From the NCBI GenBank assembly GCA_965218695.1, contig OZ244651.1, forward strand, positions 160,001 through 224,000: DNA of 64,000 bases, given 5' to 3'. The notes beneath the pieces were generated by a model, which was not told the DNA's origin, did not search any database, and saw only the letters and a program-made list of their open reading frames with translations. The position numbers were made by a program, and so were the translations under genes. Positions 30,374 through 61,763 of this stretch are shown here, piece by piece. The DNA comes from Nitrosopumilus sp. Its GTDB lineage: Archaea > Thermoproteota > Nitrososphaeria > Nitrososphaerales > Nitrosopumilaceae. How positions within the stretch are numbered: position 1 is the first letter of the stretch; each line of letters starts with the position of its first letter.

Positions 30374-30395
30374 CAAGCCATATTTAGTTGGCTAC

Positions 30396-30403: not shown

Positions 30404-30420
30404 TTATTCGACGTTTGATT

Positions 30421-31557
30421 TGCTACGTTGTACAAAAAGTAGTTCCTCCCCTAGCCAATGGAGCCGGCGTGTTTGGAAGCAAGATCAGCCTGGTGTTGAG
30501 TGGAAGCAAGGGTGTGTGGGCAAGAACGATGTACTCCAATCGGTGGCGGCATATGGGAACCCGGAGAGTACGCATCATGAAAAAGCTGGACGAATCGAAG
30601 GTAAGGTGGATACTTTCGGAGAAGGACAAGGGATCCACCAATTCATGCATCTCCAAGGCCATGGGTGTGTCGCCGCGGTGGATAAGGAGGCTGTATTCCA
30701 GGTACAGGGGACAGGAACGCAGCAGCGTGGCATATCCGATGCACATGGGCAGGCCCGCATGCGGCCTTCCCGGCCGGAAGGAACACTCTGCGGTACTGTG
30801 CGCCAAGGGCAATGACCATGTTGGGGCCGTACGCCTGCACGGGCGCATAAGGGACGTCACCGGAATAAATATTCCATACAACCGCATACACATGGTATTG
30901 CGTGACGAGGATCTGGCTGCCAGACAGCCCAACAAGAGCAAGCGCCGCAAGTGGATCCGCTTTGAGCGCACCTACTCCAACTCGATGTGGCACACCGACT
31001 ACAAGCTGCTTGACGACGGCAGGTGGTTCCTGTGCTACGAGGACGACGCCTCGCGGTTCGTGACTGCGTACGGCACGTTTGAGCGCGCAACGGCAGAAAA
31101 CGCCCTGTCGGTATTGGACGAGGCGATAAGAAACCACGGCAAGCCTGCATCCATAATGACTGACCGCGGATCCCAGTTCTACGCCACCGCATCAGAGGCA
31201 AAGAAAAAGGGTGCATCCGAGTTCGAAAAGAGGCTGGCAGAGCTTGGTATCAAGCAGATTCTGGCAGGCGTGAGGCACCCGCAGACCAACGGCAAGCTGG
31301 AGAGGCTGCACGGGGAGATCCAGCAGAAGCTGCCCGAATTTGAGGCGATAATGATGCGCAAGAGCGACCCGGTGGACCTCTTCATGCAGTGGTACAATTA
31401 CGACAGACCGCACATGTCACTTGGCCTAGACGGGGAGGAGACGCCAGCCCAGGCGTTTGTGCGCAAGATGCCACCCAAAGGAGAGATAGTAATAGACGAG
31501 CAGACAGGGGAGGAGTATCATGTGGAGTAAGGGAGGAACTACTTTTCGTATTCCACA
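30421..31557 (+). mobile_element. IS481-like insertion sequence
   Basis: IR AAAAGTAGTTCCTCCC / GGGAGGAACTACTTTT; flanking direct repeat ACGTTTGATT (30411-30420 / 31558-31567). Confidence 0.85.
30577..31530 (+). CDS. IS481-type integrase-core (rve) transposase
   Basis: WHTDYK, DDASR, TDRGSQF and HPQTNGKLERLH motifs. Confidence 0.92.
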   Translation: MKKLDESKVRWILSEKDKGSTNSCISKAMGVSPRWIRRLYSRYRGQERSSVAYPMHMGRPACGLPGRKEHSAVLCAKGNDHVGAVRLHGRIRDVTGINIPYNRIHMVLRDEDLAARQPNKSKRRKWIRFERTYSNSMWHTDYKLLDDGRWFLCYEDDASRFVTAYGTFERATAENALSVLDEAIRNHGKPASIMTDRGSQFYATASEAKKKGASEFEKRLAELGIKQILAGVRHPQTNGKLERLHGEIQQKLPEFEAIMMRKSDPVDLFMQWYNYDRPHMSLGLDGEETPAQAFVRKMPPKGEIVIDEQTGEEYHVE

Positions 31558-31569
31558 ACGTTTGATTTG

Positions 31570-31885
31570 TTCCTGAACCCGGCTTCCTACAACCGTGTAT
31601 CCTAGTCGTCCCAAAAACCAGGCATGGTTTTGCCGAGTCGATCCCATTTCTGCCTGGATCCATTCTGAACTAGTGGTGACACCACGCTAACAAGAATGCT
31701 GCGGCGAACATCTTAGCTAGCGTACGTCTCCACTTGGCGGCTGACGGCCAAACCCGATTCGTCGGAGGCATCATTGCGGATGTCTCAGTCGTCACAAGAC
31801 GTAAGGATCACGGTTCGGTTGCAGACATGCAACCGGCAGGTCGGCTAGAACCCGGCAGAGACGATGACAGTGCAGGCTGCAAGCG
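31570..31885 (+). pseudogene. tnpB: degenerate 3' end of a tnpB (IS200/IS605-type) with downstream structured region
   Basis: HANKNAAANIL at 31683 resembles the TnpB RuvC-III hADxNAAxNI motif; stops upstream; hairpins at 31812-31852. Confidence 0.55.
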
Positions 31886-32771
31886 CTTGGAAGGGCTGGC
31901 AGGCAGGGTCAAGGAATCGCTGAGCCACTCCAAATACCTCAAGCTGGACGAGACCCCGTAGTAATCGGATTAAAGATCCGGAAAAACCGATCTCGGGGCT
32001 CTACTCTTTGTTCTATCTTTCCTGCCTAGCGTATGGAGGTATCCGGCGCAGAACCGGCCTGAATGTGCCGATTTCGCCAATCTAATCGCGATCTGCGAAA
32101 TTAGTTTTTCCGGATCTTTAATCCGATTACTACCCGTACCCCATGGGGGACAAGGCCGGGTACGTCGGGGTGTGCCTGGGAGACGGCGGCACCGTGTCAG
32201 TCACGGTGGCCGGAACCCGGGGGGCGGCGGTGCTAGACGAGCACTACCCGCACTGGGACACGCCGCTTACCTGCGACGAGTTCTCCGTCTATAACGGGTT
32301 CAAGAAACGCCAACGGTGCTGGGCGCACATGCTGCGGGAATCCGAATACCGCACGCACTCAAATGATCCGCTCATGGTACTGCTGCACCACAGGCTGCAG
32401 ACGATATTCCACGACGCAAAATTCATCCCGCCAGACAAGGGCATAGACACAGGCCCCATGGCATTGGAGGTCAAGTCAATCGCGCAGGCGTACCTGCAGC
32501 ACGGCCAGCGGGTGTTTGGCACCAAACTCCACAACGCTGCAGACCATCTCTTTACCTTCGTGAATCATCCCGGCATGGATCCCACTAACAACGAGACTGA
32601 AAGGATGGTGCGCAGGATAGTGCTGCACAGGAAGATCCGCATGAGGATGGTAAATCCTGGCGGGATGAGGATGTTTGGCATTCTCATGACCTGTTTCCTT
32701 ACGTGGAGGAGACGGGGGCTTGACATACACCAGAAAATCCTAGAGGTACTTGCCTGCACCTAAACAATTAC
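31886..32771 (+). pseudogene. 5'-truncated IS66-family transposase interrupted by a MITE; right end ...CAATTAC
   Basis: LDETP|YPMG restored on MITE removal; QRCWAH and PTNNETER motifs. Confidence 0.85.
31959..32132. mobile_element. MITE, 174 bp
   Basis: 28-bp perfect TIR TAGTAATCGGATTAAAGATCCGGAAAAA; TSD CCCG (31955-31958 / 32133-32136); no ORF. Confidence 0.92.
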
Positions 32772-32798
32772 CCCGCCCGACTCTGCGAGGTTGGTGAA

Positions 32799-34130
32799 TA
32801 CATGATAACCCTACCCACCCACCACATGTGGCGGGCTGACCCCTAATTACGCATGGTCGCAAAGACCTGGTTGTTGAATGGGGCTATCCAAGCTGCTGTG
32901 TTACTGGACTCCGAGTCCTGATAGATGTATGCAGCTACCGGCCTGTCACACAAAAAAAGGGAGGTGAAAGAAATAGAAAAGAGTATTGGAATTGACATAG
33001 GAAAGAGAAAATGTGTAACGTGTATAATGGATCACAAGGGGACAATCCTGGAAAAGTCATCGTACAACAACACGTCCCGGGAGGCATTGGAGTTTGCAGC
33101 ATATCTAAAGGCCACATACGGCCAGTGCAAAGCAGTCTGCGAATCCACCGGAAACCACTGGATTAAGACTGCAGACGCCTTTGAATCCGCCGGAGTCCCG
33201 CTGACGCTTGCCAATCCGTTCAAGGTCAAGGCAATCGCATGGGCCAAAATAAAAAACGACACCATAGACGCAAGAACGCTTGCCAACCTGCTGCGGGCAG
33301 ACCTGGTTCCAGGCTGCCACATAGGTTCGGCCGAATCCAGGGGAATTAAGCAGGTCCTCAGGTACCAGATGACCCTAGTGCAGGACCGGACAAAAGTGAT
33401 CAACTTTGTGCACACGCTGACAGACAAATACGACATAAATCCAAAAAATGCAGGGACCAGCGTCTGGAGACCAAAGGTCCTAAAGTACCTTGAAGGAGCA
33501 GACATGAAGAATTTCAGGGACAGGTTTGTTCTGGACGGCTGCATATCGCAGATACGGTACTACAACGACGAGATAAAAAAGACCGAAGACGAGATCAAGT
33601 GCTACGTCCGAGACGCCCATGCCCCGAAGATACTGCTGAGCATGACGGGAATGAACGTGTTTTCTGCTGCACTGCTGGCAGCAGAGATCGACACCATCGA
33701 AAGGTTTGAGAACCCAAAAAAGCTCGTATCCTGGGCAGGCATGTGCCCGACGCTTCACCAGTCAGGCGACACGCTATACCACGGCAGGATGAAAAAGGAC
33801 TCGAACCGGAAGGTCAACTGGATCATGATCCAGTGTGCGCTTGTGGCAGTGTTCCATGACGCAAGGATGAAGGAACACTACACGCGCCTCCTGAAGAGGC
33901 ACAAGCACCACATCGCCATAACGCACGTCGCAAACAAGATGCTGACGATCATCTGGCACATGCTGACAGAAGGCAACCTGTACGAGGACAGAAACGAGAA
34001 ACTGTACCGCGCCAAGATCAAGGAAGTTATGAAGGCGTAGACGCAGAACCGGCAATGTCCGTAGACGATGATGCCTGATCTAGCGGATGCTGTGCACAAA
34101 TTATGGGAACTATGGGATGTTTCTACATGA
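32799..34130 (+). mobile_element. IS110-family element, copy 1
   Basis: bounded by direct repeat TACATGA (32799-32805 / 34124-34130); non-coding ends of about 150 and 90 nt. Confidence 0.75.
32925..34040 (+). CDS. IS110-family DEDD recombinase/transposase
   Basis: IGIDIGK, CESTG, KNDTIDA and WAGMCPTLHQSG motifs. Confidence 0.95.
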   Translation: MYAATGLSHKKREVKEIEKSIGIDIGKRKCVTCIMDHKGTILEKSSYNNTSREALEFAAYLKATYGQCKAVCESTGNHWIKTADAFESAGVPLTLANPFKVKAIAWAKIKNDTIDARTLANLLRADLVPGCHIGSAESRGIKQVLRYQMTLVQDRTKVINFVHTLTDKYDINPKNAGTSVWRPKVLKYLEGADMKNFRDRFVLDGCISQIRYYNDEIKKTEDEIKCYVRDAHAPKILLSMTGMNVFSAALLAAEIDTIERFENPKKLVSWAGMCPTLHQSGDTLYHGRMKKDSNRKVNWIMIQCALVAVFHDARMKEHYTRLLKRHKHHIAITHVANKMLTIIWHMLTEGNLYEDRNEKLYRAKIKEVMKA

Positions 34131-34235
34131 ATGCTGGGGGGCCAGCCCCCCAGACCCCCCGGAAGGGATTATGCGTGTCACACCGCGGGGCAAAAAGCCG
34201 TATTTTCTGCCGGTCGGGCAGGATTCTGCTTGCAG

Positions 34236-35448
34236 GGGTGTGTCCTAGAGGCATATACCCCCGGATGACAAAAGATATGGATCGGCGGATCACGGCATCG
34301 CCTAATGACTACAAAGAAACGCGACCAACGACAGTACGATTTGGTTCAGCAGTACCTGTCGGGCCTCATGCTGAATACCGTGCTGGGAATAATCAAGAAT
34401 CTTGGGGATCCGTACGCCGTCAGGCCCGGCCTGGGCGGCATGACGGCATACCCGCCTGGCGCCATGGCAGCTGTCTGCATCATGCTTGAGGCACAGCGCA
34501 CGACCTACCGTAAGATGGTCGGCATCCTCCGAAACAATAGCGCCATGGCAGCCAAGATGGGCCTAGAGAAAATTCCCTCCAAGAGCACGATAGCACGCGC
34601 CTACGGCCTGATCCCGGAATGGTACCTGGCAGAGGCACACCGGATTGCCATCAGGGAGGTGGAGGCAGGCTCCCTGGCAGCAGACGGTACCGGATACTCG
34701 TACCTGCGGTTTGTCAGGTGGTTTGACGTCAGGACCGACAGTTTTCGTACCAGAAAGGGATGGGTCAAACTGCACGCAATCGTGGATATCCGCACCAGGG
34801 TGATAATCGACTGCATGGTGACTGACAGCGCAGTGGCAGACATAAACGGGCTGTACGCGATGCTCGGCAGGTTAGGCCGGGGCACCGGCGACTTTTGCCT
34901 GGATTCTGCATACCTGGCAAGGCTCATGTGCAACATGATATCTGCGATGGGAATGGTGCCCCGCATCAAGCCAAAATCCAACACCATACGCAACGCCAGG
35001 GGAAGCCAGTCGTGGCGCGAGATGGTAAGCCTGTACATGGATGAACGGGACAGGTTTGACTCGGAATACCACCAGCGCAGCATCATCGAGGCAGTCTTTG
35101 CCGCCCTCAAGAAGATGTACGGGGACAGCACCAGGTGCCGAAAACACGAGAACCGGACAAGGGAGACTGCGATCCGTGTCATGTGCTACAACATCGAGCT
35201 CGTGGCCAGATTGCAGGCAAAAGACGGCAGGCTCACACAGGATCAAATCGCGACACTTGCAGCATAGCTGGCGCGTTTCACCACGCGCTTCCTAGCGGAG
35301 CCTCCGCACCGTGTCTTGGATTTGGGGGATTTTATGGGTTGTGGAGGATCGATGGTGCGGCACTGTTGGCGTCGACGGGTTCTGGCACCAATCATGTCTT
35401 TGGCATTCTGGTACATGAAATGGCATTTTTTATTACTAGGACACACCC
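34236..35448 (+). mobile_element. IS5-type element B, copy 1 (transposase 34305-35267)
   Basis: TIR GGGTGTGTCCTAG; TSD TGCTTGCAG/TGCATGCAG; empty site visible at 56808-56816. Confidence 0.92.
34305..35267 (+). CDS. IS5-family DDE transposase
   Basis: AADGTG, WVKLH, LDSAY and YHQRSIIEAVF motifs. Confidence 0.92.
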   Translation: MTTKKRDQRQYDLVQQYLSGLMLNTVLGIIKNLGDPYAVRPGLGGMTAYPPGAMAAVCIMLEAQRTTYRKMVGILRNNSAMAAKMGLEKIPSKSTIARAYGLIPEWYLAEAHRIAIREVEAGSLAADGTGYSYLRFVRWFDVRTDSFRTRKGWVKLHAIVDIRTRVIIDCMVTDSAVADINGLYAMLGRLGRGTGDFCLDSAYLARLMCNMISAMGMVPRIKPKSNTIRNARGSQSWREMVSLYMDERDRFDSEYHQRSIIEAVFAALKKMYGDSTRCRKHENRTRETAIRVMCYNIELVARLQAKDGRLTQDQIATLAA

Positions 35449-35612
35449 TGCATGCAGGTAACGCTTAAGAAGTCAAAAAACATACCCAAGGTGACAAGTT
35501 GGACGCAAAACCTGGATAAGTCCGGGGATGGGTTAACATAGATGCGTAATTCTTCTGACCGCCTAGTCTAGTCCGATACGTTCAATGATCCCATGATCGC
35601 CCGCACGCGATA

Positions 35613-36622
35613 ATGATCAAACACAACAGACGGGAAAGATACTGACAGTACTACGAACTTGCAAACGAAGTCGAGGCATCCCACCTGAGGAGGACGCTGA
35701 TTGAAATGATTCTTGAGAACCCCTGCCCGCGCTCCGAAAACGACAACAGGGGCCGTCCTCGGATTCACTCCAAGGACAAGCTGGATTTTGCCTGCCTGCC
35801 TGCCTGCTGATGAGGGCATACAACAACACATTCCGCAGGATCGAGTCAGACCTGCACGACATGCGGACTCCCTGGGACGGCGAACCCGTGCCGGATCACA
35901 CCACGATAGTCAGGCACCTCCAGATCATCCCGCCAGACTGGATGGATTTGGTGCTGGCCGAGACTGCTCGCCGATGCATCGCCGGGGCGTCCGGGGCAAC
36001 CGGACCGCTGGCTGCAGACAGCAGCGGAGTGGAGACTACCCGGTACGAGGACATCGAAAAACCCTGCAAAAGGGAGCGCGATTTCGTCGAGATGCGCCAA
36101 AAGGCCTACTGGAAATACCACGTAACGGCCATCATGGGGCTACAGATCGTGCTGGCCGCGTTTGGCACGCCTGGCAACGTCAACGACGTCACGATGCTGC
36201 CAGTCATGCTGGCAGAGATCAGGCGCCGCGGGTATGACTTTTCGGGGCGCGTCTTTGATGCGGACCGCGGGTATGACGCCGACTACAACTTCAAGGAGCT
36301 GTTCTGGATGGGCATGACGCCCAACATCAAGCAGAGAAAGGACGCCGTCAGCAGGGGCAAGCCAAGCAGGAAGAAGGCAGCCGGGCTGTTTGACTCGCAC
36401 GAGTACAGGACAAGAGCCCTGGTGGAAGGCATATTCGGGGCCGAGGAGAGCCGGCGGCACCAGCTTCACTGCAGGTTCGTGCGCGAAGACAATCGGCGCC
36501 GGTTTGCCAAGGGACGAGCAATCTCATGGAACATCCGGATCCTCAACCGGTTTAAGTGTGCCTGCCGGCTAAATATACCGATACCGTCCTACGGCGGTTC
36601 GGCTCGCACGGAGTGCGCCTGA
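35613..36622 (+). pseudogene. IS5-A transposase with in-frame TGA (35643) and (CCTG)4 frameshift (35791-35806)
   Basis: N-terminal RGRPRIHSKDKLDFACL is out of frame with MRAYNN...ADSSG...DADRGYD...YRTRALVE. Confidence 0.85.
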
Positions 36623-38015
36623 TGATCCAACCCGTCCGTATCTGACCCCGTCCGTGAGAATGCGGCGGGAAATATTCAGATTAGGACATATCGGAATTAT
36701 GCACCAACCTCCGACTGTATGAGTTCACCTGCCCCTTATATCAGTCGACCAACTTCTTCGGCCACGCTCTTGCCATGTGCCCTCCACGTGAGGACGCATG
36801 TAACAAAATCTGCAAGACGCTTCATGGACTTGGGCCCACCCTTGGTCTGCCCGCTTATCTTGCGGAACACCACCAGATAGCGCAGTGCCCTCTCGCCGGC
36901 GTTGTTTGTAGGGTCGACACCTGGATGCTCCAGGAACGCAAACATGCGGTGCAGGTGCCTCTCAAGCTTGTCCAGCACCTTTTGCATGTCGTCATCGTTA
37001 CCACCACCTGCATCGCGATACCGGTCAAGCATGTCCTGCATGGTGCGGTTCATCGCATGCCGCAGATGTGGCGAGTGCGCCTCCTGCGCGGCCAGCAGTT
37101 TTGCCCTCTCAAACACCCACTTGTGGTCCTCGTGGAGCTGCCGCCGCCGCCGGACGCGTTTGGTCTTGGGAGGCACGGCACAGTATTTTTCTGCCAGGTG
37201 TCTTGTCTGCCGGAGGTCGTGCGCCCAGCACGACTGGTGCATGCCGCCCTTGTCAAACCTGTCATACCCGTTGTACCCGTCAGTTATCGCCACCCCGTCA
37301 AATTTGTCCATGGCATCGAGCATGAGCGTGGCCCTGCTCTGGCTGATGTTTATTGCGATATTTTTGCCCGACTGTGCCACGTTTGCGTGCACCCTCTGGC
37401 CGTCGTTTCGCCAGCTGGTCTCGTCAAACCCGGCACAGTCAGAAGCCTCCACTTCCCCGAGGATCCTGCCTGCCTCGTGGCCCGAGGCGTCCCCGACGCG
37501 CGCCATGATGTTGTTGACAGTGGATCCTGCAAGCTCAATGTCCGTTATGGAGCGCACCGCGACCGAGATTCCCTTGAGCGGCACCCGTGCCGCGCGCAGT
37601 TCTGAGACGAGCCCGACCAGTCCCTTGCCGAAGTTGCCCCGCCGCGGCAGGTCGTTTGGGGCATCTTCCCTGCGGCCGCATGAGCCGCATATTGCAGTCT
37701 CCACGCGGTGCCGCGTCTCGCACGCAGTCACCATGATGTCCGTGATGTCCCGCACGCGCGGACTGCCAATCGCCATCCGGCCGCCGCCGCACCCGCATTC
37801 CGGGAGTACCGGCACCTGTCTCCTGCCCGACTTCCTGCGCCCGAACCTGTGGGATACGGTCCTTTCCGGGTCGTGGGAGCGCGACGCCCCCACGTGTCCA
37901 TCTCTTCCCCCGCGCTTGGCTTTGTCTCCCTTTTCCTGTTTTTTTGCCCGCTCCCTCTTCTGGGCCTTCCATTCCAGGGATTCAGATGAGGGCGGCGTGT
38001 TGGGGTTTGTATAGT

Positions 38016-39486
38016 AGATTCTATGCGTAATCGCACTTAATTTTTAATTTTAGACAGCACGCATGAATTATTGTTGGATTTGCGGATTAATTCTGCATCA
38101 AGGCATGCGGTGCCGGAGACATTTTACAAGCATTTGCAGCAATACGTGCGCACCATCCCCGCACCGCGATGTGCACCGGTTCTGTTATCAGAACGGGGCG
38201 CTGCCTGCAGGCGGGACGGCCCCGTTCCAGTCAATGACTGTCTCCCACCTGCCAGGCGGCGGCGGGCCCTTGTCTATCTTGTCCCATAGCAGGTGCAGGT
38301 TTACCAGTCCGGTGGCCACGTTGAATTCGTAGTTGAACCTGCCTATGGTCCCGTCGTACGGGTCTGTCAGGCGCGCGTATCTCTTGAGCCTTCCGATGGA
38401 GTGCTCCACGCGCACCCGGACAGAGTTGACCAGGTGGTTGTGTTCTTTTTGCTTGGCAGTCAGGATCCGGCGGTTTTTTGATCTCTTGTGGGGGATCATG
38501 AGCGTTGAGCCCGGCAGATCCTTGCCGGTTCCCTGGTAGCCCCTGTCTGCCCAGACGCGGATCCTGTCTTTTTCCGGCGTGGAGGCCTCGCGCATGGAAT
38601 CGGCCCACCTGCCAAACGGCATAGGATCCTCCCTGAGCAGCGTAATGTCGCCGGTGGAGCCGACGGAGCTTTTCGAGATCCCGATTATCACCCCGTCGGC
38701 GTTGGTGTAGACTGTGGTGTTGTAGGTAAAGCGCTTCTTCTTGCCCGAGTACATCATGCGCCTGAGGGTCTTTTCTGACGGGCGCCGCACCGGACAGTGC
38801 GTGCCGTCTGCGATGATGTTGCCCCCGTCGGATCCGGGCACGATTTTTTTGAATTCCTCCTTGGTCTTGCACGAGGCCACCTCTTTTGAGACGTTTTTGG
38901 CAGTGGGAAGCACCCCGGCCAGCATCTTGTCCATCACCTTGAGGTACCTGCACACGCTGGTCTGGTCGATTCCGAATATTGCCTGCAGCGTGCCCTGCGT
39001 GGGGTTGTCTTTTTTGTGCATGAGCGACATGAGCAGGGCGTGCCGGAGGCGCAGCCTGCACCTGTTTCCCGGATCAGAGGCCCGGGATTCGTCGTCGCGA
39101 AACAGCGGCATGTCGCCGGATGCGGTGGCGTACGCCAACACCCGCTCCAGAACGTGCCGGAACTCCTCCCTGCTGCACAGGGTCGCAGAGCGCAGGCTGG
39201 ACTCGTCTGATATGACGCCGTCAAAGACCTCGATCCTGTGCAGGTCCGTGCTGTTCCCCGGGTCCCAGCCCTCCTCCCTGTTCTTCCACAGGCGGCGCTC
39301 GATGTCCAGCTCCTTGTCCTTTTGGTCTAATTCCTTGTCTTTCTGTGCCAGAGTCTCGTTTAGTTTTTTAATTTCCTGTTGCATCTTGCGTATGGCTTGA
39401 TCAGACGAATCCTGCATTTGGAATGTAGCGAGATTATGTCTGATCTAAACTTATTGGATTGATGGGTGGGATTACGCATAAAATCT
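38016..39486 (-). mobile_element. IS5-family (DDE_Tnp_4/ISL2-Harbinger-like) element inserted in IS66-B
   Basis: TIR AGATT(C/T)TATGCGTAATC; TSD AGT (or TAGTA if the ends are 1 nt shorter). Confidence 0.88.
38188..39417 (-). CDS. DDE_Tnp_4-type transposase
   Basis: IIADGTHCPV, YSGKKK, ADRGYQG and RVRVEHSIGRLK motifs. Confidence 0.92.
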   Translation of the reverse strand: MQDSSDQAIRKMQQEIKKLNETLAQKDKELDQKDKELDIERRLWKNREEGWDPGNSTDLHRIEVFDGVISDESSLRSATLCSREEFRHVLERVLAYATASGDMPLFRDDESRASDPGNRCRLRLRHALLMSLMHKKDNPTQGTLQAIFGIDQTSVCRYLKVMDKMLAGVLPTAKNVSKEVASCKTKEEFKKIVPGSDGGNIIADGTHCPVRRPSEKTLRRMMYSGKKKRFTYNTTVYTNADGVIIGISKSSVGSTGDITLLREDPMPFGRWADSMREASTPEKDRIRVWADRGYQGTGKDLPGSTLMIPHKRSKNRRILTAKQKEHNHLVNSVRVRVEHSIGRLKRYARLTDPYDGTIGRFNYEFNVATGLVNLHLLWDKIDKGPPPPGRWETVIDWNGAVPPAGSAPF

Positions 39487-39735
39487 AGTATGTCATGATG
39501 CGCTCGCTGTACCCCAAGGCCCTTTCAAGACGTTCGATCTTGGCAAGCACCTCTTCAATCTTGGACTCGAGCATGGCATTTTTCTTCCTTTCCTCAGCCA
39601 GTTCCCTCTCCAGCTGTTCCCTGTTCATGTGCCGTGGGTTCCCCATGGACAGGGATGTGTATTACCAGCATATGGATCAGTATGATCATTTTTTTGTGAC
39701 AGGAAGGACAGGTGAATTCATACCTCCGACTCTGC

Positions 39736-40948
39736 GGGTGTGTCCTAGAGAGATATACTCTAGGATGACAAAAGATATGGATCGGCAGATCACGGCATCG
39801 CCTAATGACTACAAAGAAACGCGACCAACGACAGTACGATCTGGTTCAGCAGTACATGCCGGGCCTCATGCTGAATACCGTGCTGGGGATAATCAAAGAG
39901 CTTGGGGATCCGTACGCCGTCTGGCCCGGCTTGGGCGGCATGACGGCATACCCGCCTGGCGCCATGGCAGCTGTCTGCATCATGCTTGAGGCACAGCGCA
40001 CGACCTACCGCAAGATGGTCGGCATTCTCCGAAGTAACGGCGTCATGGCAGCCAGGATGGGCCTGGACAGAATTCCCTCCAAGAGCACGATAGCACGCGC
40101 CTACGGCCTGATCCCGGAATGGTATCTGGCAGAGACACACCGGATTGCCATCAGGGAGGTGGGGACAGGCTCCCTGGCAGCAGACAGTACCGGGTACTCG
40201 TACCTGCGGTTTGTCAGGTGGTTTAACGTCCGGACCGACAGTTTTCGTACCAGAAAGGGATGGGTCAAGCTGCACGCAATCGTGGACATACGCACCAGGG
40301 TGATAATCGACTGCATGGCAACTGACAGCGCGGTGGCAGACATAAACGGGCTGTACGCGATGCTCGGCAGGCTCGGCCTAGGCACCGGTGACTTTTGCCT
40401 GGATTCTGCATACCTGGCAAGGCTAATGTGCAACATGATATCTGCGATGGGAATGGTGCCCCGCATCAAGCCAAAATCCAACACCATACGCAACGCCAGG
40501 GGAAGCCAGTCGTGGCGCGAAATGGTAAGCCTGTACATGGATGACAAGGACAGGTTTGACTCGGAATACCACCAGCGCAGCATCATCGAGGCAGTCTTTG
40601 CAGCCCTCAAGAAGATGTACGGGGACAGCACCAGGTGCCGAAAACACGAGAACCGGACAAGGGAGACTGCGATCCGTGTCATGTGCTACAACGTCGAGCT
40701 CGTGGCCAGATTGCAGGCAAAAGACGGCAGGCTCACACAGGATCAAATCGCGACACTTGCAGCGTAACCGGTGCGTCTTGACACGCGCCTCCTAGCGGAG
40801 CCTCCGCACAGTGTCTTGGATTTGGGGGATTTTATGGGTTGTGAAAGATTGACGGTGCGGCACTGTTGGCGTCGACGGGTTCTGGCACCAATCGTGTCTT
40901 TGGCATCTTGGCACATGAAATGGCATTTTTTATTACTAGGACACACCC
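39736..40948 (+). mobile_element. IS5-type element B, copy 2 (transposase 39805-40767)
   Basis: TIR GGGTGTGTCCTAG; TSD CGACTCTGC (right copy split by an IS66). Confidence 0.92.
39805..40767 (+). CDS. IS5-family DDE transposase
   Basis: near-identical to 34305-35267. Confidence 0.92.
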   Translation: MTTKKRDQRQYDLVQQYMPGLMLNTVLGIIKELGDPYAVWPGLGGMTAYPPGAMAAVCIMLEAQRTTYRKMVGILRSNGVMAARMGLDRIPSKSTIARAYGLIPEWYLAETHRIAIREVGTGSLAADSTGYSYLRFVRWFNVRTDSFRTRKGWVKLHAIVDIRTRVIIDCMATDSAVADINGLYAMLGRLGLGTGDFCLDSAYLARLMCNMISAMGMVPRIKPKSNTIRNARGSQSWREMVSLYMDDKDRFDSEYHQRSIIEAVFAALKKMYGDSTRCRKHENRTRETAIRVMCYNVELVARLQAKDGRLTQDQIATLAA

Positions 40949-40953
40949 CGACT

Positions 40954-42492
40954 GTATGAATTCACCTGTCCTTCCTGTCACAAAAAAATGATCATACTGA
41001 TCCATATGCTGGCAATACACATCACTTTACATGGTAAATTCACGGCACATGAGCAGGGACCAGCTAAAAGAGGAACTCCTAGCACGGAACCGGGAGATTG
41101 CCACCCTCAAATCCGATCTTGAGAAGGCACTTGGCAGGATAGAACGTCTTGAAAGGGCCTTGGGGTACAGCGAACGCCTCATGACATACTATACAAACCC
41201 CAACACGCCGCCCTCATCTGAATCCCTGGAATGGAAGGCCCAGAAGAGGGAGCGGGCAAAAAAACAGGAAAAGGAGGGCAAATCCAAGCGCGGGGGAAGA
41301 AAGGGACACGCGGGGGCGTCGCGCCCCCACGACCCGGAAAGGACCGTATCCCACAGGTTCGGGCGCAGGAAGTCGGGCAGGAGGCGGGTGCCGGTGCTCC
41401 CGGAATGCGGGTGCGGCGGCGGCCGGATGGCGATTGGCAGTCCGCGCGTGCGGGACATCACGGACATCAGGGTGACTGCGTGCGAGACGCGGCACCGCGT
41501 GGAGACTGCAGTATGCGGCTCATGCGGCCGCAGGGAAGATGCTCCAAACGACCTGCCGCGGCGGGGCAACTTCGGCAAGGGCATGGTCGGACTCGTCTCA
41601 GAACTGCGCGCGGCACGGGTGCCGCTCAAGGGAATCTCGGTCGCGGTGCGCTCCATAACGGGCATTATGCTTGCAGGATCCACCGTCAACAACATCATGG
41701 CACGCGTCGGGGACGCCTCGGGCCACGAGGCAGGCAGGATCCTCGGGGAAGTGGAGGCTTCTGACTGTGCCGGGTTTGACGAAACCAGCTGGCGAAACGA
41801 CGGCCAGAAGGTACACGCAAACGTGGCACAGTCGGGCAAAAATATCGCAATAAACATCAGCCAGAGCAGGGCCACGCTCATGCTCGATGCCATGGACAAA
41901 TTTGACGGGGTGGCGATAACTGACGGGTACAACGGATATGACAGGTTTGACAAGGGCGGCATGCACCAGTCGTGCTGGGCGCACGACCTCCGGCAGACAA
42001 GGCACCTGGCAGAAAAATACTGCGCCGTGCCTCCCGAGACCAAACGTGTCCGGCGGCGGCAGCAGCAGCTCCACGAGGACCACAAGTGGGTGTTTGAGAG
42101 GGCAAAACTGCTGGCCGCGCAGGAGGCGCGCTCGCCACAGCTGCGGCATACGATGAACCGCACCATGCAGGACGTGCTTGACCGGTACCGCGATGCCGGT
42201 GGTGGTGGTAACGATGACGACATGCAAAAGGTGCTGGACAAGCTCGAGAGGCACCTGCACCGCATGTTTGCGTTCCTGGAGCATCCCGGCGTCGAGCCTA
42301 CAAACAACGCCAGCGAGAGGGCGCTGCGCTACCTGGTGGTGTTCCGCAAGATAAGCGGGCAGACCAAGGGCGGCTCCAAGGCCATGAAGCGCCTTGCAGA
42401 TTTTGTCACGTGCGTCCTCACGTGGAGGGCACATGGCAAGAGCGTGGCCGAAGAAGTTGGTCGACTGATATAAGGGGCAGGTGAATTCATAC
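40954..42492 (+). mobile_element. IS66-family element B, copy 2 (intact)
   Basis: TIR GTATGAATTCACCTG; 8-bp TSD CCCCGACT (40946-40953 / 42493-42500). Confidence 0.93.
41031..42473 (+). CDS. IS66-family transposase
   Basis: coiled coil, NTPPSS, Zn ribbon, FDETSW, QSCWAH and PTNNASER motifs. Confidence 0.93.
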   Translation: MVNSRHMSRDQLKEELLARNREIATLKSDLEKALGRIERLERALGYSERLMTYYTNPNTPPSSESLEWKAQKRERAKKQEKEGKSKRGGRKGHAGASRPHDPERTVSHRFGRRKSGRRRVPVLPECGCGGGRMAIGSPRVRDITDIRVTACETRHRVETAVCGSCGRREDAPNDLPRRGNFGKGMVGLVSELRAARVPLKGISVAVRSITGIMLAGSTVNNIMARVGDASGHEAGRILGEVEASDCAGFDETSWRNDGQKVHANVAQSGKNIAINISQSRATLMLDAMDKFDGVAITDGYNGYDRFDKGGMHQSCWAHDLRQTRHLAEKYCAVPPETKRVRRRQQQLHEDHKWVFERAKLLAAQEARSPQLRHTMNRTMQDVLDRYRDAGGGGNDDDMQKVLDKLERHLHRMFAFLEHPGVEPTNNASERALRYLVVFRKISGQTKGGSKAMKRLADFVTCVLTWRAHGKSVAEEVGRLI

Positions 42493-42504
42493 CCCCGACT
42501 CTGC

Positions 42505-43717
42505 GGGTGTGTCCTAGTAATAAAAAATGCCATTTCATGTACCAGAATGCCAAAGACATGATTGGTGCCAGAACCCGTCGACGCCAACAGTGCCGCACCG
42601 TCAATCTTTCACAACCCATAAAATCCCCCAAATCCAAGACACTGTGCGGAGGCTCCGCTAGGAGGCGCGTGGTGAAACGCGCCAGCTATGCTGCAAGTGT
42701 CGCGATTTGATCCTGTGTGAGCCTGCCGTCTTTTGCCTGCAATCTGGCCACGAGCTCGACGTTGTAGCACATGACACGGATCGCAGTCTCCCTTGTCCGG
42801 TTCTCGTGTTTTCGGCACCTGGTGCTGTCCCCGTACATCTTCTTGAGGGCTGCAAAGACTGCCTCGATGATGCTGCGCTGGTGGTATTCCGAGTCAAACC
42901 TGTCCTTGTCATCCATGTACAGGCTTACCATCTCGCGCCACGACTGACTTCCCCTGGCGTTGCGTATGGTGTTGGATTTTGGCTTGATGCGGGGTACCAT
43001 TCCCATCGCAGATATCATGTTGCACATTAGCCTTGCCAGGTATGCAGAATCCAGGCAAAAGTCGCCGGTGCCCCGGCCTAACCTGCCGAGCATCGCGTAC
43101 AGCCCGTTTATGTCTGCCACTGCGCTGTCAGTCACCATGCAGTCGATTATCACCCTGGTGCGTATGTCCACGATTGCGTGCAGTTTGACCCATCCCTTTC
43201 TGGTACGAAAACTGTCGGTCCTGACGTCAAACCACCTGACAAACCGCAGGTACGAGTATCCGGTACCGTCTGCTGCCAGGGAGCCTGCCTCCACCTCCCT
43301 GATGGCAATCCGGTGTGCCTCTGCCAGGTACCATTCCGGGATCAGGCCGTAGGCGCGTGCTATCGTGCTCTTGGAGGGAATTTTCTCTAGGCCCATCTTG
43401 GCTGCCATGGCGCTATTGTTTCGGAGGATGCCGACCATCTTACGGTAGGTCGTGCGCTGTGCCTCAAGCATGATGCAGACAGCTGCCATGGCGCCAGGCG
43501 GGTATGCCGTCATGCCGCCCAGGCCGGGCCTGACGGCGTACGGATCCCCAAGATTCTTGATTATTCCCAGCACGGTATTCAGCATGAGGCCCGACAGGTA
43601 CTGCTGAACCAAATCGTACTGTCGTTGGTCGCGTTTCTTTGTAGTCATTAGGCGATGCCGTGATCCGCCGATCCATATCTTTTGTCATCCGGGGGTATAT
43701 GCCTCTAGGACACACCC
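42505..43717 (-). mobile_element. IS5-type element B, copy 3 (transposase 42686-43648)
   Basis: TIR GGGTGTGTCCTAG; perfect TSD CGACTCTGC (42496-42504 / 43718-43726). Confidence 0.93.
42686..43648 (-). CDS. IS5-family DDE transposase
   Basis: near-identical to the other two copies. Confidence 0.92.
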   Translation of the reverse strand: MTTKKRDQRQYDLVQQYLSGLMLNTVLGIIKNLGDPYAVRPGLGGMTAYPPGAMAAVCIMLEAQRTTYRKMVGILRNNSAMAAKMGLEKIPSKSTIARAYGLIPEWYLAEAHRIAIREVEAGSLAADGTGYSYLRFVRWFDVRTDSFRTRKGWVKLHAIVDIRTRVIIDCMVTDSAVADINGLYAMLGRLGRGTGDFCLDSAYLARLMCNMISAMGMVPRIKPKSNTIRNARGSQSWREMVSLYMDDKDRFDSEYHQRSIIEAVFAALKKMYGDSTRCRKHENRTRETAIRVMCYNVELVARLQAKDGRLTQDQIATLAA

Positions 43718-43732
43718 CGACTCTGCTAAATA

Positions 43733-43740
43733 GATATAAG
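43733..43740 (+). promoter_or_regulatory. putative TATA box of the 43764 gene
   Basis: TAAATA-GATATAAG, 23 nt upstream of the ATG. Confidence 0.6.
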
Positions 43741-43763
43741 GGAATTGGAGATCCTAAAACAAA

Positions 43764-44207
43764 ATGGCAACAAAGACAGTTCTTATATTTATACTGCCTG
43801 TATTGTTCTCGATAGTGTTTGGATCCGCAGTCATGGCCGATATTCTTCAAAAGCCTGATCGTACCCTGAATATGTGGCCTGTGTCATCTGAAACCACATC
43901 TCATTACACCCTTGAGATCATCGGACTATCCGAGCAATACTCTGTATCCGAGTCAATAACAGCACAATTCGTAGTATCTGATATCTCTTATGACTGCGCC
44001 GATCTGTATGTTACAATTTATTCAGAAAACGTGCCTGTCAGCCAAAACGGATTCTTTAAACAATGTTTTGGAAATGAAGGTATCATTCCGGTAGACGATA
44101 CGTTCTCTGAGACTATTGACACACCGGGATCCTATGAATTGGTGGCACAGCTTGGCTCAGAAAACTTGGGATTCATTCTGACTAGCGCAATATTTACTGT
44201 TAAATAG
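43764..44207 (+). CDS. membrane-anchored/secreted hypothetical protein
   Basis: N-terminal TM plus beta-rich domain. Confidence 0.8.
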   Translation: MATKTVLIFILPVLFSIVFGSAVMADILQKPDRTLNMWPVSSETTSHYTLEIIGLSEQYSVSESITAQFVVSDISYDCADLYVTIYSENVPVSQNGFFKQCFGNEGIIPVDDTFSETIDTPGSYELVAQLGSENLGFILTSAIFTVK

Positions 44208-44252
44208 GAATATCCTATGATAAATATGAGGCGATTCTGAAGGTGTGGTGTC

Positions 44253-45170
44253 ATGGAAGTAACAGGTGATTCTCAAACCATAGAAGAGATCCGGGCAGAG
44301 ATTGATGAACTAAAAAGGAAGGCGATGATTCTGGATTCGTCGTCCACAAGCACTGTTAAGGAATCCTATTCAAAGAAATCCGTACCAAGGCCCACAGCCA
44401 AGAAACCTGCCGCAAAGCCTGCAGCCAAGAAACCTGCCGCAAAGCCTGCAGCCAAGAAACCTGCCGCAAAGCCTGCAGCCAAGAAACCTGCCGCAAAGCC
44501 TGCAGCCAAGAAACCTGCCGCAAAGCCTGCAGCCAAGAAACCTGCCGCAAAGCCTGCAGCCAAGAAACCTGCCGCAAAGCCTGCAGCCAAGAAACCTGCC
44601 GCAAAGCCTGCAGCCAAGAAACCTGCCGCAAAGCCTGCAGCCAAGAAACCTGCCGCAAAGCCTGCAGCCAAGAAGCCTGCAGCCAAGTCCAAACCAAAAA
44701 AATCCACAGCCAAGAAACCCGAGCCCAAAGAATCTGAAAAAACACCAGAGGAGGAGATGGAGGCAAACCTCTCTGATGAGGAGATTGAAAATTTTCGGAT
44801 TGAAAAGGTCGACATGGATAAACTCACAAACAAGGTATGCGTCATTCTGGCAGAACACGAATCAAACGGAATGCTTCAAAACGAACTGTGGAAGAAGCTC
44901 AAACTCTCAAATCGTGATGGTTCGCGTCTGTCATTGAAGCTTGAGAGAATGGGAACCATTACCCGAGAGAAGCTTCTTCAGAAGAACCGCTGGACTTACA
45001 AACTAATCCTAAAAAAGACCCCAGTCAGTACCAAATCGATCGAGAATGCCCCCTGTCTAGTGTGTCCTGTTGAACAAAGATGTACCATAGACGGTGAAAT
45101 CAGCCCTAAAAATTGTCAGCTTATTGAGGACTGGGTAATCAATTCGATGAAGAAGCCGAAGTCCCGATGA
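44253..45170 (+). CDS. Rpc34/TFE-beta-like winged-helix plus Fe-S transcription factor with PAAK-repeat N-terminal region
   Basis: w[11 protein letters not shown]...[10 protein letters not shown]; C-terminal PCLVC-x5-C-x10-C...W motif. Confidence 0.75.
44395..44687 (+). repeat. 27-bp perfect tandem repeat (about 10 units) encoding KKPAAKPAA
   Basis: unit GCCAAGAAACCTGCCGCAAAGCCTGCA. Confidence 0.97.
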
Positions 45171-53417: not shown

Positions 53418-54364
53418 CTTGTTCAATTGGCTTGGCTTTGAATATAACAGTTGTTTGCGCGTTATGTCAAAGGCAGTGGTCAAGTCCAAACCCATGGAGT
53501 TGTGGGCATGGCTGTGGAGATGTTTATGGATGGAATGGTGCCAGATCATATCATTCTCTTGCCCCCGAACATCCAGAAGATGGTCTGGGATACCGATCTC
53601 TAAGATACCGCCTACCTCATGCTGATAGACATGGGAACAGGAAGGTGCAGATCTGATTGGATGAATACTGCACAGGTCCCAATGGGCTGTGGCGACTTGC
53701 TGTTTTTTACGAGGTTGGTGAATACATGATAACCCTACCCACCCACCACATGTGGCGGGCTGACCCCTAATTACGCATGGTCGCAAAGACCTGGTTGTTG
53801 AATGGGGCTATCCAAGCTGCTGTGTTACTGGACTCCGAGTCATGATAGATGTATGCAGCTACCGGCCTGTCACACAAAAAAAGGGAGGTGAAAGAAATAG
53901 AAAAGAGTATTGGAATTGACATAGGAAAGAGAAAATGTGTAACGTGTATAATGGATCACAAGGGGACAATCCTGGAAAAGTCATCGTACAACAACACGTC
54001 CCGGGAGGCATTGGAGTTTGCAGCATATCTAAAGGCCACATACGGCCAGTGCAAAGCAGTCTGCGAATCCACCGGAAACCACTGGATTAAGACTGCAGAC
54101 GCCTTTGAATCCGCCGGAGTCCCGCTGACGCTTGCCAATCCGTTCAAGGTCAAGGCAATCGCATGGGCCAAAATAAAAAACGACACCATAGACGCAAGAA
54201 CGCTTGCCAACCTGCTGCGGGCAGACCTGGTTCCAGGCTGCCACATAGGTTCGGCCGAATCCAGGGGAATTAAGCAGGTCCTCAGGTACCAGATGACCCT
54301 AGTGCAGGACCGGACAAAAGTGATCAACTTTGTGCACACGCTGACAGACAAATACGACATAAAT

Positions 54365-61734: not shown

Positions 61735-61763
61735 CATTTCCAACTACTGTTTTTTACGGTAAC

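Follow-up and report, generated by a model that had tools for sequence, protein, structure and literature searches.

A 9-bp target reused by several insertion sequences upstream of a conserved TATA-like box in a Nitrosopumilus genome

Described systems and the setting of the locus

IS231A inserts into the terminal repeats of Tn4430, and Ty3 integrates at Pol III promoters; the likeness to the locus described here is that the ends of a heterologous element, or a promoter-bound complex of the TBP family, can act as integration beacons, although these are other families in other hosts and protein-guided targeting at our locus is putative. The targeted conservative route of IS26 is not known to create a new duplication, whereas every IS5-type hit in our array produced a duplication of 9 bp, and elements of different type can be partners (one that we call ISA beside one that we call ISB). 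What IS26 shares with the array is that a resident attracts the next insertion by targeted conservative cointegrate formation, so that clusters arise, and in the excerpt drawn on here this route needs sequence identity at the reacting end (PMC7885326). For IS30, a dual specificity has been described, with insertion either into hot-spot sequences or, by 'IR-targeting', beside its own inverted repeats, IS911 being cited as similar; the newcomer enters immediately next to the terminus of a resident copy, which makes IS ends preferred targets and gives rise to arrays of abutting ends, as in our case (PMC9333248, in the portion used here). That portion describes IR-targeting as strictly orientation-specific and as forming IRL-IRR junctions via a branched intermediate, whereas the newcomer in our array makes a normal staggered cut, re-duplicates the 9-bp target site duplication (TSD) of the resident and is found in both orientations (ISB copies B2 and B3 are inverted); moreover, ISA and ISB are IS5-type and not members of the IS30 family, and the IS66 elements of the array target termini that belong to unrelated families. 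Casposons arranged in tandem within ef-2, and a pair of proviruses sharing a single intergenic site, have been reported from the same archaeal phylum; there too, one target is used repeatedly and is regenerated by each integration. The sections concerned deal with Cas1-type or tyrosine integrases with defined attachment sites and count at most 83 IS per thaumarchaeal genome (PMC6563490, in part). Our array, in contrast, consists of DDE insertion sequences without sequence-specific sites, and about a quarter of the present genome is repeats. The likeness to a CRISPR array is formal, in that a short repeat is duplicated per event and the array could grow from one end, but the units are autonomous transposons, the 9-mer is a target duplication rather than a functional repeat, and the region is without Cas1-Cas2, a leader or dedicated recording machinery.

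The stretch analysed (the window, 64,000 nt) covers positions 160,001-224,000 of the forward strand of contig OZ244651.1 (GCA_965218695.1) from Nitrosopumilus sp., an ammonia-oxidising archaeon of the Nitrosopumilaceae with a genome rich in insertion sequences: bases in at least three copies make up 26% of it, and 29 of the 461 gaps between repeat blocks genome-wide measure less than 15 nt, where about 1.75 would be expected. Comparison with relatives marks window positions 30423-43726 (13.3 kb) as inserted DNA just upstream of a conserved TATA-like box, and in seven of the eight congeners listed the genes on either side are adjacent and divergent, with about 100 nt between them. The array is best read as an ordinary yet unusually tidy IS nest in a former gap of about 100 nt between two divergent genes. 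In the closest relative, G002 (92-96% identity), the site reads ...cagttac cgcc CGACTCCGC, with CGACTCCGC present and no IS5-type elements around it; an unrelated TnpB element sits at TA immediately to the right of the homologous 9-mer.

Anatomy of the array

Table 1. Features of the inserted DNA and the adjoining box from left to right, in window coordinates.
Feature	Position	Strand	Remark
ISF, IS481-like (rve integrase core)	30424..31557	+	leftmost insertion of the former intergenic region
Old IS66-family remnant, ends ...TTAC	31558..32771 (left limit nominal)	+	single copy
S1, first intact CGACTCTGC	32778..32786	+	left TSD of ISA
ISA, IS5-type, inverted repeats GAGGTTGGTG..., 9-bp TSD	32787..36711	+	holds nested elements
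IS110-family element	32797..35544	+	follows nt 10 of the left end of ISA
ISB copy B1	34236..35448	+	within the IS110 element; flanks TGCTTGCAG / TGCATGCAG
CGACT	36712..36716	+	first 5 nt of the ISA right TSD, split off by IS66-1
IS66-1, single-ORF IS66-family, older subfamily	36717..39723	-	Pfam DDE_Tnp_IS66
Nested IS5-family element (DDE_Tnp_4), 1469 bp	38017..39485	-	inside IS66-1, 5-bp TSD TAGTA
S2, intact CGACTCTGC regenerated right of IS66-1	39727..39735	+	left TSD of B2
ISB copy B2, IS5 family, inverted repeats GGGTGTGTCCTAG, 9-bp TSD	39736..40948	+	
IS66-2, young IS66 burst	40954..42492	+	Pfam DDE_Tnp_IS66
S3, intact CGACTCTGC right of IS66-2	42496..42504	+	TSD of B3
ISB copy B3, inverted vs B2	42505..43717	-	CGACTCTGC at either side, TSD 9/9
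S4, promoter-proximal CGACTCTGC	43718..43726	+	adjoins the conserved box
Conserved TAAATAGATATAAGGG box	43727..43742	+	about 22-37 nt upstream of ATG 43764

ISF matches Pfam rve and reaches 175 bits with the NCBIfam IS481 model, below the cut-off of 224; five further copies in the genome are 98-100% identical. The IS66-family remnant beside it carries an ORF (32143-32763; Pfam DDE_Tnp_IS66, E 2.6e-14), and the window sequence 31900-32777 has no second copy in the genome. Its end lies 6 nt to the left of S1, where the preliminary description had placed an older IS66 end, and G002 shares both this end and the S site. What had been taken for a single IS5 element at the left is IS5-type, as claimed (transposase DDE_Tnp_1, E 3.7e-10), but it is composite: the DNA of ISA itself is 32787-32796 plus 35545-36711, and between them lies the IS110-family element carrying B1. 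The transposase of the latter (32925-34040) scores 219.7 bits with the NCBIfam model of the IS110 RNA-guided transposase (cut-off 140), and about 15 related left ends in the genome are each preceded by ...TG. Both IS66 elements have perfect 8/8 TSDs, CTCCGACT at 36709-36716 and 39724-39731 for IS66-1, and CCCCGACT at 40946-40953 and 42493-42500 for IS66-2, with a second CGACT at 40949-40953 between B2 and IS66-2; the element nested in IS66-1 is the sole copy of its kind in the genome. B2 differs from its nearest copy at 18 positions and B3 at 14, and the family assignment of B2 rests on its 94-95% identity to B1 and B3, whose transposases have DDE_Tnp_1 and DUF772 domains, IS5 being the best NCBIfam match of the B1 transposase.

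At the right edge, the last 2 nt of S4 (GC) are ancestral intergenic sequence in the congeners listed, the spacer of seven of the eight reading ...GC directly before TAAATAGATATAAGGG (TGC in 5/7). The box is kept in 7/8 congeners listed, with an ATG 21-24 nt downstream, and its position and composition make it the likely BRE/TATA core promoter of the gene at 43764-44207 (147 aa).

Independence and order of the insertions

The window holds four intact copies of CGACTCTGC (at 32778, 39727, 42496 and 43718) against 0.38 expected, a number that 0 of 100 shuffles reached, and in the array these four copies and two shortened ones (CGACT) all lie at the ends of elements. The same 9 bases were duplicated by three IS5-type elements of two types, ISA and the two ISB copies B2 and B3, and TSDs match throughout; the repeated 9-mer, the order of the elements and the triple use of one target that had been reported all hold. 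Each IS66 TSD consists of 3 nt of the right end of an IS5-type element (CTC from ISA for IS66-1, CCC from B2 for IS66-2) and 5 nt of flank, which also bears out the earlier point that both IS66 insertions are younger than the IS5-type elements to their left. These observations support separate transposition events that reused one 9-bp target.

One possible explanation is that IS5-type transposases recognise CGACTCTGC itself as a hot spot, as its use three times by two element types might suggest. The count of other sites and their occupancy that had been proposed gives 55 occurrences of the 9-mer in the genome. Outside the array there are 51, not one of them in contact with an end of ISA, ISB or IS66, and none of the 47 on contig C1 lies at a repeat boundary, which argues that the 9-mer itself is not the cue. 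ISB has 26 genome copies, 19 with a perfect 9-bp TSD, and these TSDs are diverse, with no consensus among the 24 copies outside S; the other ISA TSDs are GTATTTCTG and GTTTTTTAC, and the 9-mers reused in congeners G018 and G082 are unrelated to S. Recognition of the sequence is thus close to refuted.

A 9-mer could also be spread by recombination among IS copies or their TSDs, through unequal exchange or gene conversion, and recombination of this kind has left traces in the array. B1 differs from the ISB copy at C1:2048094 at three positions, the approximately 150 nt to its left are foreign flank, 98% identical to the IS110 host of that copy, and the remainder of its IS110 element is 100% identical to the second copy in the window; on this pattern of identities, B1 arrived by gene conversion and not as a transposition hit. 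Elsewhere, the ISB copies C1:565649 and C1:1152229 have apparently exchanged flanks. As the source of the repeated 9-mer, recombination is nevertheless very improbable: tandem duplication is impossible because type, orientation and sequence all vary among the three IS5-type elements (B2 and B3, inverted, differ at 58 of about 1213 positions), no donor locus with S beside these elements exists elsewhere in the genome, and the paired elements in G018 differ from each other.

With 26% of the genome repeated, the order or presence of blocks might instead be an assembler artefact. Among the matches listed, independent read contigs show one of the six array junctions, and run X2 has an odd joint of low support from 40981 to 42505 (depth 7, 28 letters on the shorter side). 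On the other hand, the junctions are all unique and the TSDs match 8/8 (both IS66), 9/9 (B3) and 5/5 (nested IS); chimeric joins are unlikely because they would not reproduce such matching pairs. The contig also reaches 2.46 Mb despite hundreds of IS copies, and the Logan contigs of both runs, X2 and X5, start in B3 at 43690 and continue without a single mismatch across S4 and the promoter and through the gene. Mis-assembly can hardly be the explanation.

At least six distinct transposition events, together with one gene conversion, built the array; six insertions had been proposed, whereas at least seven events took place in that stretch. The junctions fix that ISA preceded IS66-1, which preceded the nested IS, that ISA preceded B1, and that B2 preceded IS66-2. 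ISA, B2 and B3 may have arrived in any order, and a history running from right to left is equally compatible, so the claim that every hit fell on the promoter-proximal copy and left a chronological record does not follow. That claim amounts to polarised accretion, in which older elements are pushed to the left and the array reads from old to young. IS66-1 has five substitutions against its nearest copy (C1:1986049) and a nested IS, whereas IS66-2 has no private positions and a nearest copy at one substitution and one 6-bp indel, and the left element thus looks slightly older. Against such a record, ISA is 100% identical over 1262 nt to its second copy, unlike what the oldest member should be, although it could be the donor, and divergence cannot date insertions if ISB moves by cut and paste.

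Candidate cues at resident ends and at the promoter

A perfect 8-bp TSD is found in 24 of the 25 IS66 copies of the genome. Ten of the 25 lie within -4 to +5 nt of the terminus of another element (TSD edge to terminus: -3 in four, -4 in two, +1 in one, +4 in one and +5 in two), an excess with a binomial P of 3e-17 if the chance rate is set to 0.5% and of 3e-11 if it is set to 2%; only two lie deep inside repeats. The four at -3, whose TSD is 3 nt of the resident terminus plus 5 nt of flank, sit beside two ISB, one ISA and one element of another family. It had been noted that IS66-1 and IS66-2 cut at the same base in opposite orientations, which is correct, but this is a genome-wide habit of this IS66 type rather than a property of the site.

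The IS5-type elements behave similarly. An intact ISA copy at C1:879138-880314, with TSD GTATTTCTG, filled a 9-base gap, its TSD starting at an ISG terminus and ending at an ISH terminus; a second, composite copy at window 53711-58070, the right part of which is 100% identical, took a further insertion in its own right TSD, where a different IS entered 1 nt away from the end of ISA. A search of 121 congeners for GGACACACCC-N(0-30)-GGGTGTGTCC found facing ISB-type ends at most 30 bases apart at three distinct places in two genomes (twice in G018, once in G082), a count limited by draft genomes, which usually collapse repeats, and the reversed pattern used as control gave no hits in the 121. N is exactly 9 at all three places, and the 9-mer spacer reappears at a further flank as a shared TSD in each; the paired elements in G018 differ, in that a MITE-like element of 82 nt stands next to a full-type end and left ends have diverged. 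Beside unrelated residents the ISB offsets vary (-1, +1, +3, +3 and +6 nt), and the exact rule of offset 0 therefore holds only beside IS5-type ends.

The other candidate cue is the promoter. If IS5-type elements integrated at the upstream border of the BRE/TATA box, as they might in DNA bent by TBP/TFB, accretion from the right would result, and such a preference of ISB would account for the reuse of the target equally well. S4 ends exactly at the start of the TAAATAGATATAAGGG box, 37 nt before the ATG, and in G002 the TnpB element lies right beside the homologous 9-mer. Of the 12 other ISB insertions in unique DNA, four precede the ATG of an ORF (136-387 aa) by 36-41 nt and have an AT-rich, TATA-like box 2-7 nt from the TSD, against 3.0% of 20,000 random non-ORF positions (binomial P 3e-4, for a bin picked post hoc), and an AT-rich box lies about 6 nt from one outer TSD copy in G082 and at one of the two G018 sites (L018). 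However, the order of ISA, B2 and B3 is fixed by no junction of the array, ISA elsewhere took a gap between two termini, IS66 targeting is clearly linked to termini and not to promoters, and the 193 repeat-block edges in unique DNA show no clear peak of promoter distance (9/193 at 40-55 nt against 2.5% in the control). Surviving insertions would also be concentrated at promoter edges if selection maintained the two core promoters within a spacer of 100 nt. Polarised growth from the promoter is compatible with the data and weakly hinted at, and we regard it as a tentative explanation, rather unlikely as a whole.

We favour reuse by local cues at resident IS ends, with the target regenerated by each duplication, to which we give a probability of about two in three (0.68). 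Each 9-bp duplication would restore an intact target at both sides of the newcomer, and active elements would choose targets by local cues that persist after insertion, namely the outward side of the terminus of a resident IS and, possibly, the upstream boundary of the core promoter; one 9-bp target would thus be reused because the duplication regenerates it and the cues stay in place. For ISA and the ISB family, the 9-bp staggered cut would start exactly at the resident IS5-type terminus and so duplicate the TSD of the resident again, and for IS66-type elements an 8-bp staggered cut would span the junction of terminus and flank, 3 nt inside and 5 nt outside. The incoming transpososome may recognise a protein-bound or distorted IS end, or a promoter bound by TBP/TFB. 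The same registers recur genome-wide and across species, and insertion beside the ends of resident elements is a general habit of the elements in this genome.

Composition of the insertion array

Direct reading of the sequence, together with repeats, ORFs and Pfam/NCBIfam matches, gave the map in the table below, in which the 9-mer CGACTCTGC occurs as four intact copies (S1 to S4, with S4 next to the putative promoter of the right-hand gene), compared with 0.38 expected in the window and with four or more in none of 100 shuffles. The preliminary description of these copies as interleaved with IS5-type and IS66 elements was correct, and so were its observations that each IS66 target-site duplication (TSD) contains 3 nt of the left-hand IS5-type end, that the two IS66 copies (IS66-1 and IS66-2) have opposite orientations, and that S1 has an older IS66-family end (...TTAC at 32771) 6 nt to its left. 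Repeated independent hits upon a single 9-bp target are supported. The leftmost element, ISA, is of IS5 type as described, but it is not simple, because it is a composite with an IS110-family element and with B1, one of three array copies (B1, B2 and B3) of the second IS5-type element, ISB. IS66-1 is not a simple element either and holds a nested IS5-family element, and B2 and B3 face one another with their right ends.

Genes, 9-mer copies and mobile elements of the array, in window coordinates
Feature	Position	Strand	Description	Distance to nearest copy
Left gene	28283-30376	minus	AAA ATPase	
S1	32778-32786		intact CGACTCTGC	
ISA	32787-36711		IS5-type, inverted repeats (IRs) GAGGTTGGTG	0 of 1262 nt
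IS110-family element	32797-35544		within ISA, after nt 10 of ISA left end	
B1	34236-35448		third ISB copy, within the IS110 element	
CGACT			between ISA and IS66-1	
IS66-1	36717-39723	minus	TSD CTCCGACT at both flanks	5 substitutions
Nested IS5-family element	38017-39485		1469 bp, within IS66-1, 5-bp TSD TAGTA	
S2	at 39727		intact CGACTCTGC, between IS66-1 and B2	
B2	39736-40948		ISB copy, IS5 family, IRs GGGTGTGTCCTAG	18 differences
CGACT			between B2 and IS66-2	
IS66-2	40954-42492	plus	TSD CCCCGACT at both flanks	1 substitution and one indel, 0 private positions
S3	at 42496		intact CGACTCTGC, between IS66-2 and B3	
B3	42505-43717		ISB copy, inverted	14 differences
S4	43718-43726		intact CGACTCTGC, then TAAATAGATATAAGGG, then the ATG of the right gene	
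Right gene	43764-44207			

The ISB copies have the DDE_Tnp_1 transposase, IRs and fixed-length TSD of the IS5 family: the transposases of B1 and B3, the two copies scanned, match DDE_Tnp_1 (E 4.7e-16 and 1.2e-15) and DUF772, the best NCBIfam model, transpos_IS5_2, gives 111.4 bits and so stays below its cut-off of 140, and the 9-bp TSD is perfect in 19 of 26 copies, matches at 8/9 in two and at 7/9 in one, the remaining four without a clean TSD being accounted for by later IS66 insertion or flank exchange. ISA belongs to the same family by its DDE_Tnp_1 transposase (E 3.7e-10, with the frame split over two overlapping ORFs, and only 49 bits on the NCBIfam IS5 model against a cut-off of 140), its IRs and a 9-bp TSD in 3/3 copies after later insertions are subtracted. 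IS66-1 and IS66-2 are IS66 elements by DDE_Tnp_IS66 (E 2.1e-28 and 5.1e-29) and an 8-bp TSD, with 171.6 bits on NCBIfam transpos_IS66, slightly below the cut-off of 180. The canonical tnpA/tnpB/tnpC layout of that family is absent from the 1539-bp element, which consists of one 480-aa transposase ORF (41031-42473) and is too short to leave room for two accessory genes; presumably its nearest likeness is to the subgroup of IS66 elements with a single ORF. The element nested in ISA is an IS110 member (219.7 bits against a cut-off of 140) with a DEDD transposase, no IRs and a sequence-specific target. About 15 related IS110 left ends are all preceded by ...TG, and several by GTTGGTG-like ends of other IS, which would fit a sequence-guided targeting of IS ends. 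Within the old IS66-family remnant there is a 38-nt inverted repeat (window 31958-32133, 92% complementary, 100 nt apart), and just downstream of the array the ORF at 44253-45170 contains 27-nt tandem units (about 17 copies, window 44319-44777) that give 9-aa repeats.

Within the nest every TSD pair agrees, and a chimeric assembly would not yield such agreement. When region 40909-44300 was compared with Logan contigs, those of two sequencing runs (X2 and X5) ran from 43690 within B3 through S4 and the gene with zero differences, and among the contig matches listed the junction confirmed in this way is B3/S4. Contig depth was about 4-5 for single-copy DNA and about 150 for IS. In two other runs (X1 and X6) there is a relative with 94% identity, and its contig departs from the array sequence left of 43747. 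The contigs of four runs contained no variant array short of any element, a result that does not count against the existence of such variants. One X2 contig joins 40981 to 42505, so that IS66-2 breaks off after 28 nt and B3 begins, at depth 7 and with 28 letters on the shorter side, which is under the reliability advice of the tool; this joint may be cross-mapping from a similar ISB/IS66 junction at C1:114455-117217 (C1 being the 2.46-Mb contig).

Target choice by the IS66 and IS5-type elements

A preference for the 9-mer itself could have explained the reuse of one target, and the occupancy of its other copies was counted as the preliminary description had proposed. CGACTCTGC occurs 55 times genome-wide against about 23 expected; none of the 51 copies outside the array adjoins an ISA, ISB or IS66 end, and none of the 47 other copies on C1 lies at a repeat boundary. 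The TSDs of the 26 ISB copies are also diverse, and thus the 9-mer itself is not the targeting cue. By eye, no motif is common to the 9-mer and other ISB targets; their one common trait is a raised A+T, 0.58-0.65, up to 15 nt from the TSD.

The IS66 insertions follow the ends of resident elements. We reconstructed the pre-insertion targets, with resident termini defined from multiple copies, for the 25 IS66 copies that have both ends; their 8-bp TSDs are diverse, and 24 are perfect. The TSD overlaps a resident terminus by 3 nt in four copies (an ISB at C1:114455, ISA and B2 in the array, and another family at C1:473314) and by 4 nt in two, and it lies 1-5 nt outside a terminus in four more, so that 10 of 25 are near a terminus while only two are deep within repeats. 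With about 710 repeat boundaries on the contig, the chance rate is well below 1%, and the binomial P is 3e-17 at a rate of 0.5% and 3e-11 at 2%. A 26th copy, which is truncated, is 4 nt away from the right end of an ISB, and the residents struck at their ends belong to at least four unrelated families. IS66 targeting is plainly end-directed. The cut at the same base is indeed observed in the array, and it is accounted for by this genome-wide rule, which both copies obey.

Reuse of a resident's TSD by IS5-type elements was also found outside the array. The TSD GTATTTCTG of an intact ISA copy (C1:879138-880314) starts exactly at the terminus of ISG (877766-879128, a 1363-bp element with a 7-bp TSD, GTATTTC, and 11 copies), and its other edge coincides with the end of a third element. 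ISG and another element, ISH, abut within 1-2 nt at two loci, window 63655-63700 (C1:223655-225061) and C1:877766-881120, and at the latter ISA occupies the 9-nt gap between them. A second ISA::IS110 composite (window 53711-58070) has a TSD, GTTTTTTAC, that is perfect after removal of a later 3.67-kb IS block, which sits 1 nt outside the right end of the composite with a 5-bp TSD, TTTTT, and IRs CAGTAGwTGGAAATG. The IS110 of this second composite (window 53711-61748, C1:213711-221748) is interrupted by a different 1.6-kb element.

Among 121 congeners, a search for an ISB right end, N(0-30) and an ISB left end matched three distinct places (two in genome G018 and one in G082), with zero matches for the reversed control. 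N was 9 in all three, and in every place the 9-mer spacer (CCTGAGCGC, GTGTGGGAT or CCTTGTCGC) repeats at a further flank; the abutting elements are unlike one another, and the printed flanks of the G082 site and of one G018 site contain AT-rich boxes. The genome studied here retains no uninterrupted facing-end pair of ISB type, because both pairs were invaded by IS66. Gaps shorter than 15 nt between its repeat blocks number 29 of 461, against about 1.75 expected, and about 26% of all bases (25.9%) are in at least three copies. Where ISB stands next to unrelated residents, its offsets are -1, +1, +3, +3 and +6 nt, and the old TTAC end is similarly 6 nt away from S1; thus, the exact register is seemingly tied to IS5-type ends. 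At C1:987640-990138, two direct 1247-bp IS copies (ends CAGCTAAGCG...) have only CTAAG between them, and CTAAG also follows the right copy, so that this is either a shared-duplication pair or a tandem dimer.

The site in relatives and the order of insertions

The flanking genes are divergent neighbours about 100 nt apart in seven of the eight congeners printed, with a spacer that reads ...GC and then TAAATAGATATAAGGG (TGC in 5/7), followed by the ATG 21-24 nt further on. This short spacer implies that window 30423-43726 (13.3 kb) is all inserted mobile DNA, and the conserved TATA-like box starts exactly at the end of S4. In G002, the closest relative (92-96% identity), the homologous site contains the old IS66 end and CGACTCCGC, whereas ISA, ISB and IS66 are absent from it; thus, the array was assembled after the split from G002. 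ISB is nevertheless present in the G002 genome, in at least 10 copies of 86-93% identity. In the present genome 17 copies of the IS66 element are nearly identical, whereas no match to it was obtained in G002 or G018, suggesting that its arrival and its burst are recent. At the G002 locus (G002:C1:1008600-1010700), a TnpB-only element of about 1.5 kb, with a 483-aa ORF (OrfB_IS605 and a Cas12f-like TNB domain), lies at a TA directly right of the homologous 9-mer, indicating that the sister lineage was struck at the same spot too. G002 further has a 77-nt insert, bounded by a 10-bp duplication, GGAGATCCTA, that separates the TATA-like box from the ATG.

The preliminary description had regarded the array as a chronological record, in which each hit fell on the promoter-proximal copy of the 9-mer. 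Such a record was not established, as TSD content and nesting fix the order in three cases only: IS66-1 came after ISA and was itself entered later by its nested IS, B1 came after ISA, and IS66-2 came after B2. No array junction fixes the relative order of ISA, B2 and B3. Dating by divergence from the nearest copy also fails to order the IS5-type insertions, and it is unsafe because the nearest copy may itself be the donor, because the donor may have disappeared, and because a cut-and-paste mode is possible for IS5-type elements.

B1 was considered as an independent transposition into the same site and rejected. The IS110 of the array is 100% identical to the copy that starts at window 53721, apart from some 150 nt that adjoin B1 on the left; these are 98% identical to the IS110 hosting an ISB at C1:2048094, and B1 differs from that ISB at three positions. 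This left flank shows that B1 came by gene conversion (window 34080-35460 with C1:2047998-2050755, the donor IS110::ISB locus being 89% identical), which also accounts for the mismatched TSD of B1. Ectopic conversion is thus a route by which nested insertions pass from one IS copy to another in this genome. Two other ISB copies are without matching TSDs (C1:565649-566859 and C1:1152229-1154888), but the sequence right of one copy is similar to that left of the other (GGTTGGCT), as expected for recombination between them, that is, a rearrangement.

A polarised accretion on the promoter side, which would be compatible with end-directed targeting, is the less likely reading but a live rival. It draws on the contact of S4 with the conserved box, on the slightly older look of IS66-1 than of IS66-2, and on the hit at the same junction in G002. 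In addition, when the 12 other ISB insertions into unique DNA are considered, four are placed 36-41 nt upstream of the ATG of an ORF (136-387 aa) and have a TATA-like box at a distance of 2-7 nt to the TSD, as does S4 at 37 nt; only 3.0% of 20,000 random non-ORF positions fall in this distance bin, which was picked post hoc, and for one of the four an ORF start lies closer on the opposite side. However, no junction fixes the order of hits, the other ISA site is set by IS ends, the IS66 insertions go to ends, and all repeat edges pooled give no clear promoter-distance peak. Furthermore, selection preserving two core promoters in a 100-nt spacer would itself concentrate survivors at promoter edges.

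Probable landmark-directed insertion and its relation to known systems

The reuse of the target is likely caused by landmark-directed choice, in which the landmarks are IS ends and possibly the promoter edge. In a more specific form, to which we give a probability of only about 0.15, the archaeal IS5-type transposases would read landmarks instead of sequence, namely both the upstream edge of a TBP/TFB-occupied promoter and the outer ends of IS, with growth on the promoter side, and a newly arrived IS66 would home to terminus/flank junctions of unrelated IS. The 9-bp duplication would then rebuild a landmark-adjacent target, and the site would go on capturing elements. The likeness to polarised spacer acquisition does not extend to CRISPR-like machinery, of which none was found in the array region: every Pfam-matched ORF in 30415-43648 is a transposase.

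IS nests are common, and insertion beside IS ends is known in a few bacterial families. PMC9333248 describes insertion of IS30 at hot spots or beside its own IRs, PMC7885326 deals with the targeted conservative insertion of IS26, and PMC6563490 describes the tandem integration of casposons and proviruses in Thaumarchaeota. The array resembles IS30-type end targeting in that ISB and ISA stand at offset 0 beside resident IS5-type ends; outside it, the ISA copy at C1:879138 likewise adjoins resident ends, and the facing ISB-type ends of congeners are 9 nt apart in 3/3 places. It differs in that there is no strict orientation, as B2 and B3 show, in that the TSD of the resident is re-duplicated where IS30 forms an IRL-IRR junction, and in that IS30 uses ends of its own family whereas IS66 strikes unrelated ones. 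Set against IS30, IS26, and casposons and proviruses together, the cases here are distinguished by an ordinary staggered cut that re-duplicates the TSD of the resident, by the occurrence of both orientations, by partners of different types, and by heterologous targets in the case of IS66. Less familiar are an IS5-type family that re-duplicates the 9-bp TSD of a resident in exact register in three archaeal species, and a single-ORF IS66 that cuts 3 nt inside and 5 nt outside the ends of unrelated elements; a limited full-text literature search returned no account of IS66 targeting foreign IS ends, nor of IS5-type TSD re-duplication.

If this register is real, facing ends spaced by N9 would be a simple signature that can be counted in any complete genome. 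If the more specific landmark reading is true, such arrays would be an ordered history of the IS bursts of a lineage, and archaea would have a Ty3-like, transcription-factor-guided mode of targeting. Should both registers prove to be genuine targeting rules, the confinement of new insertions to already broken DNA in IS-swollen genomes would have an explanation.
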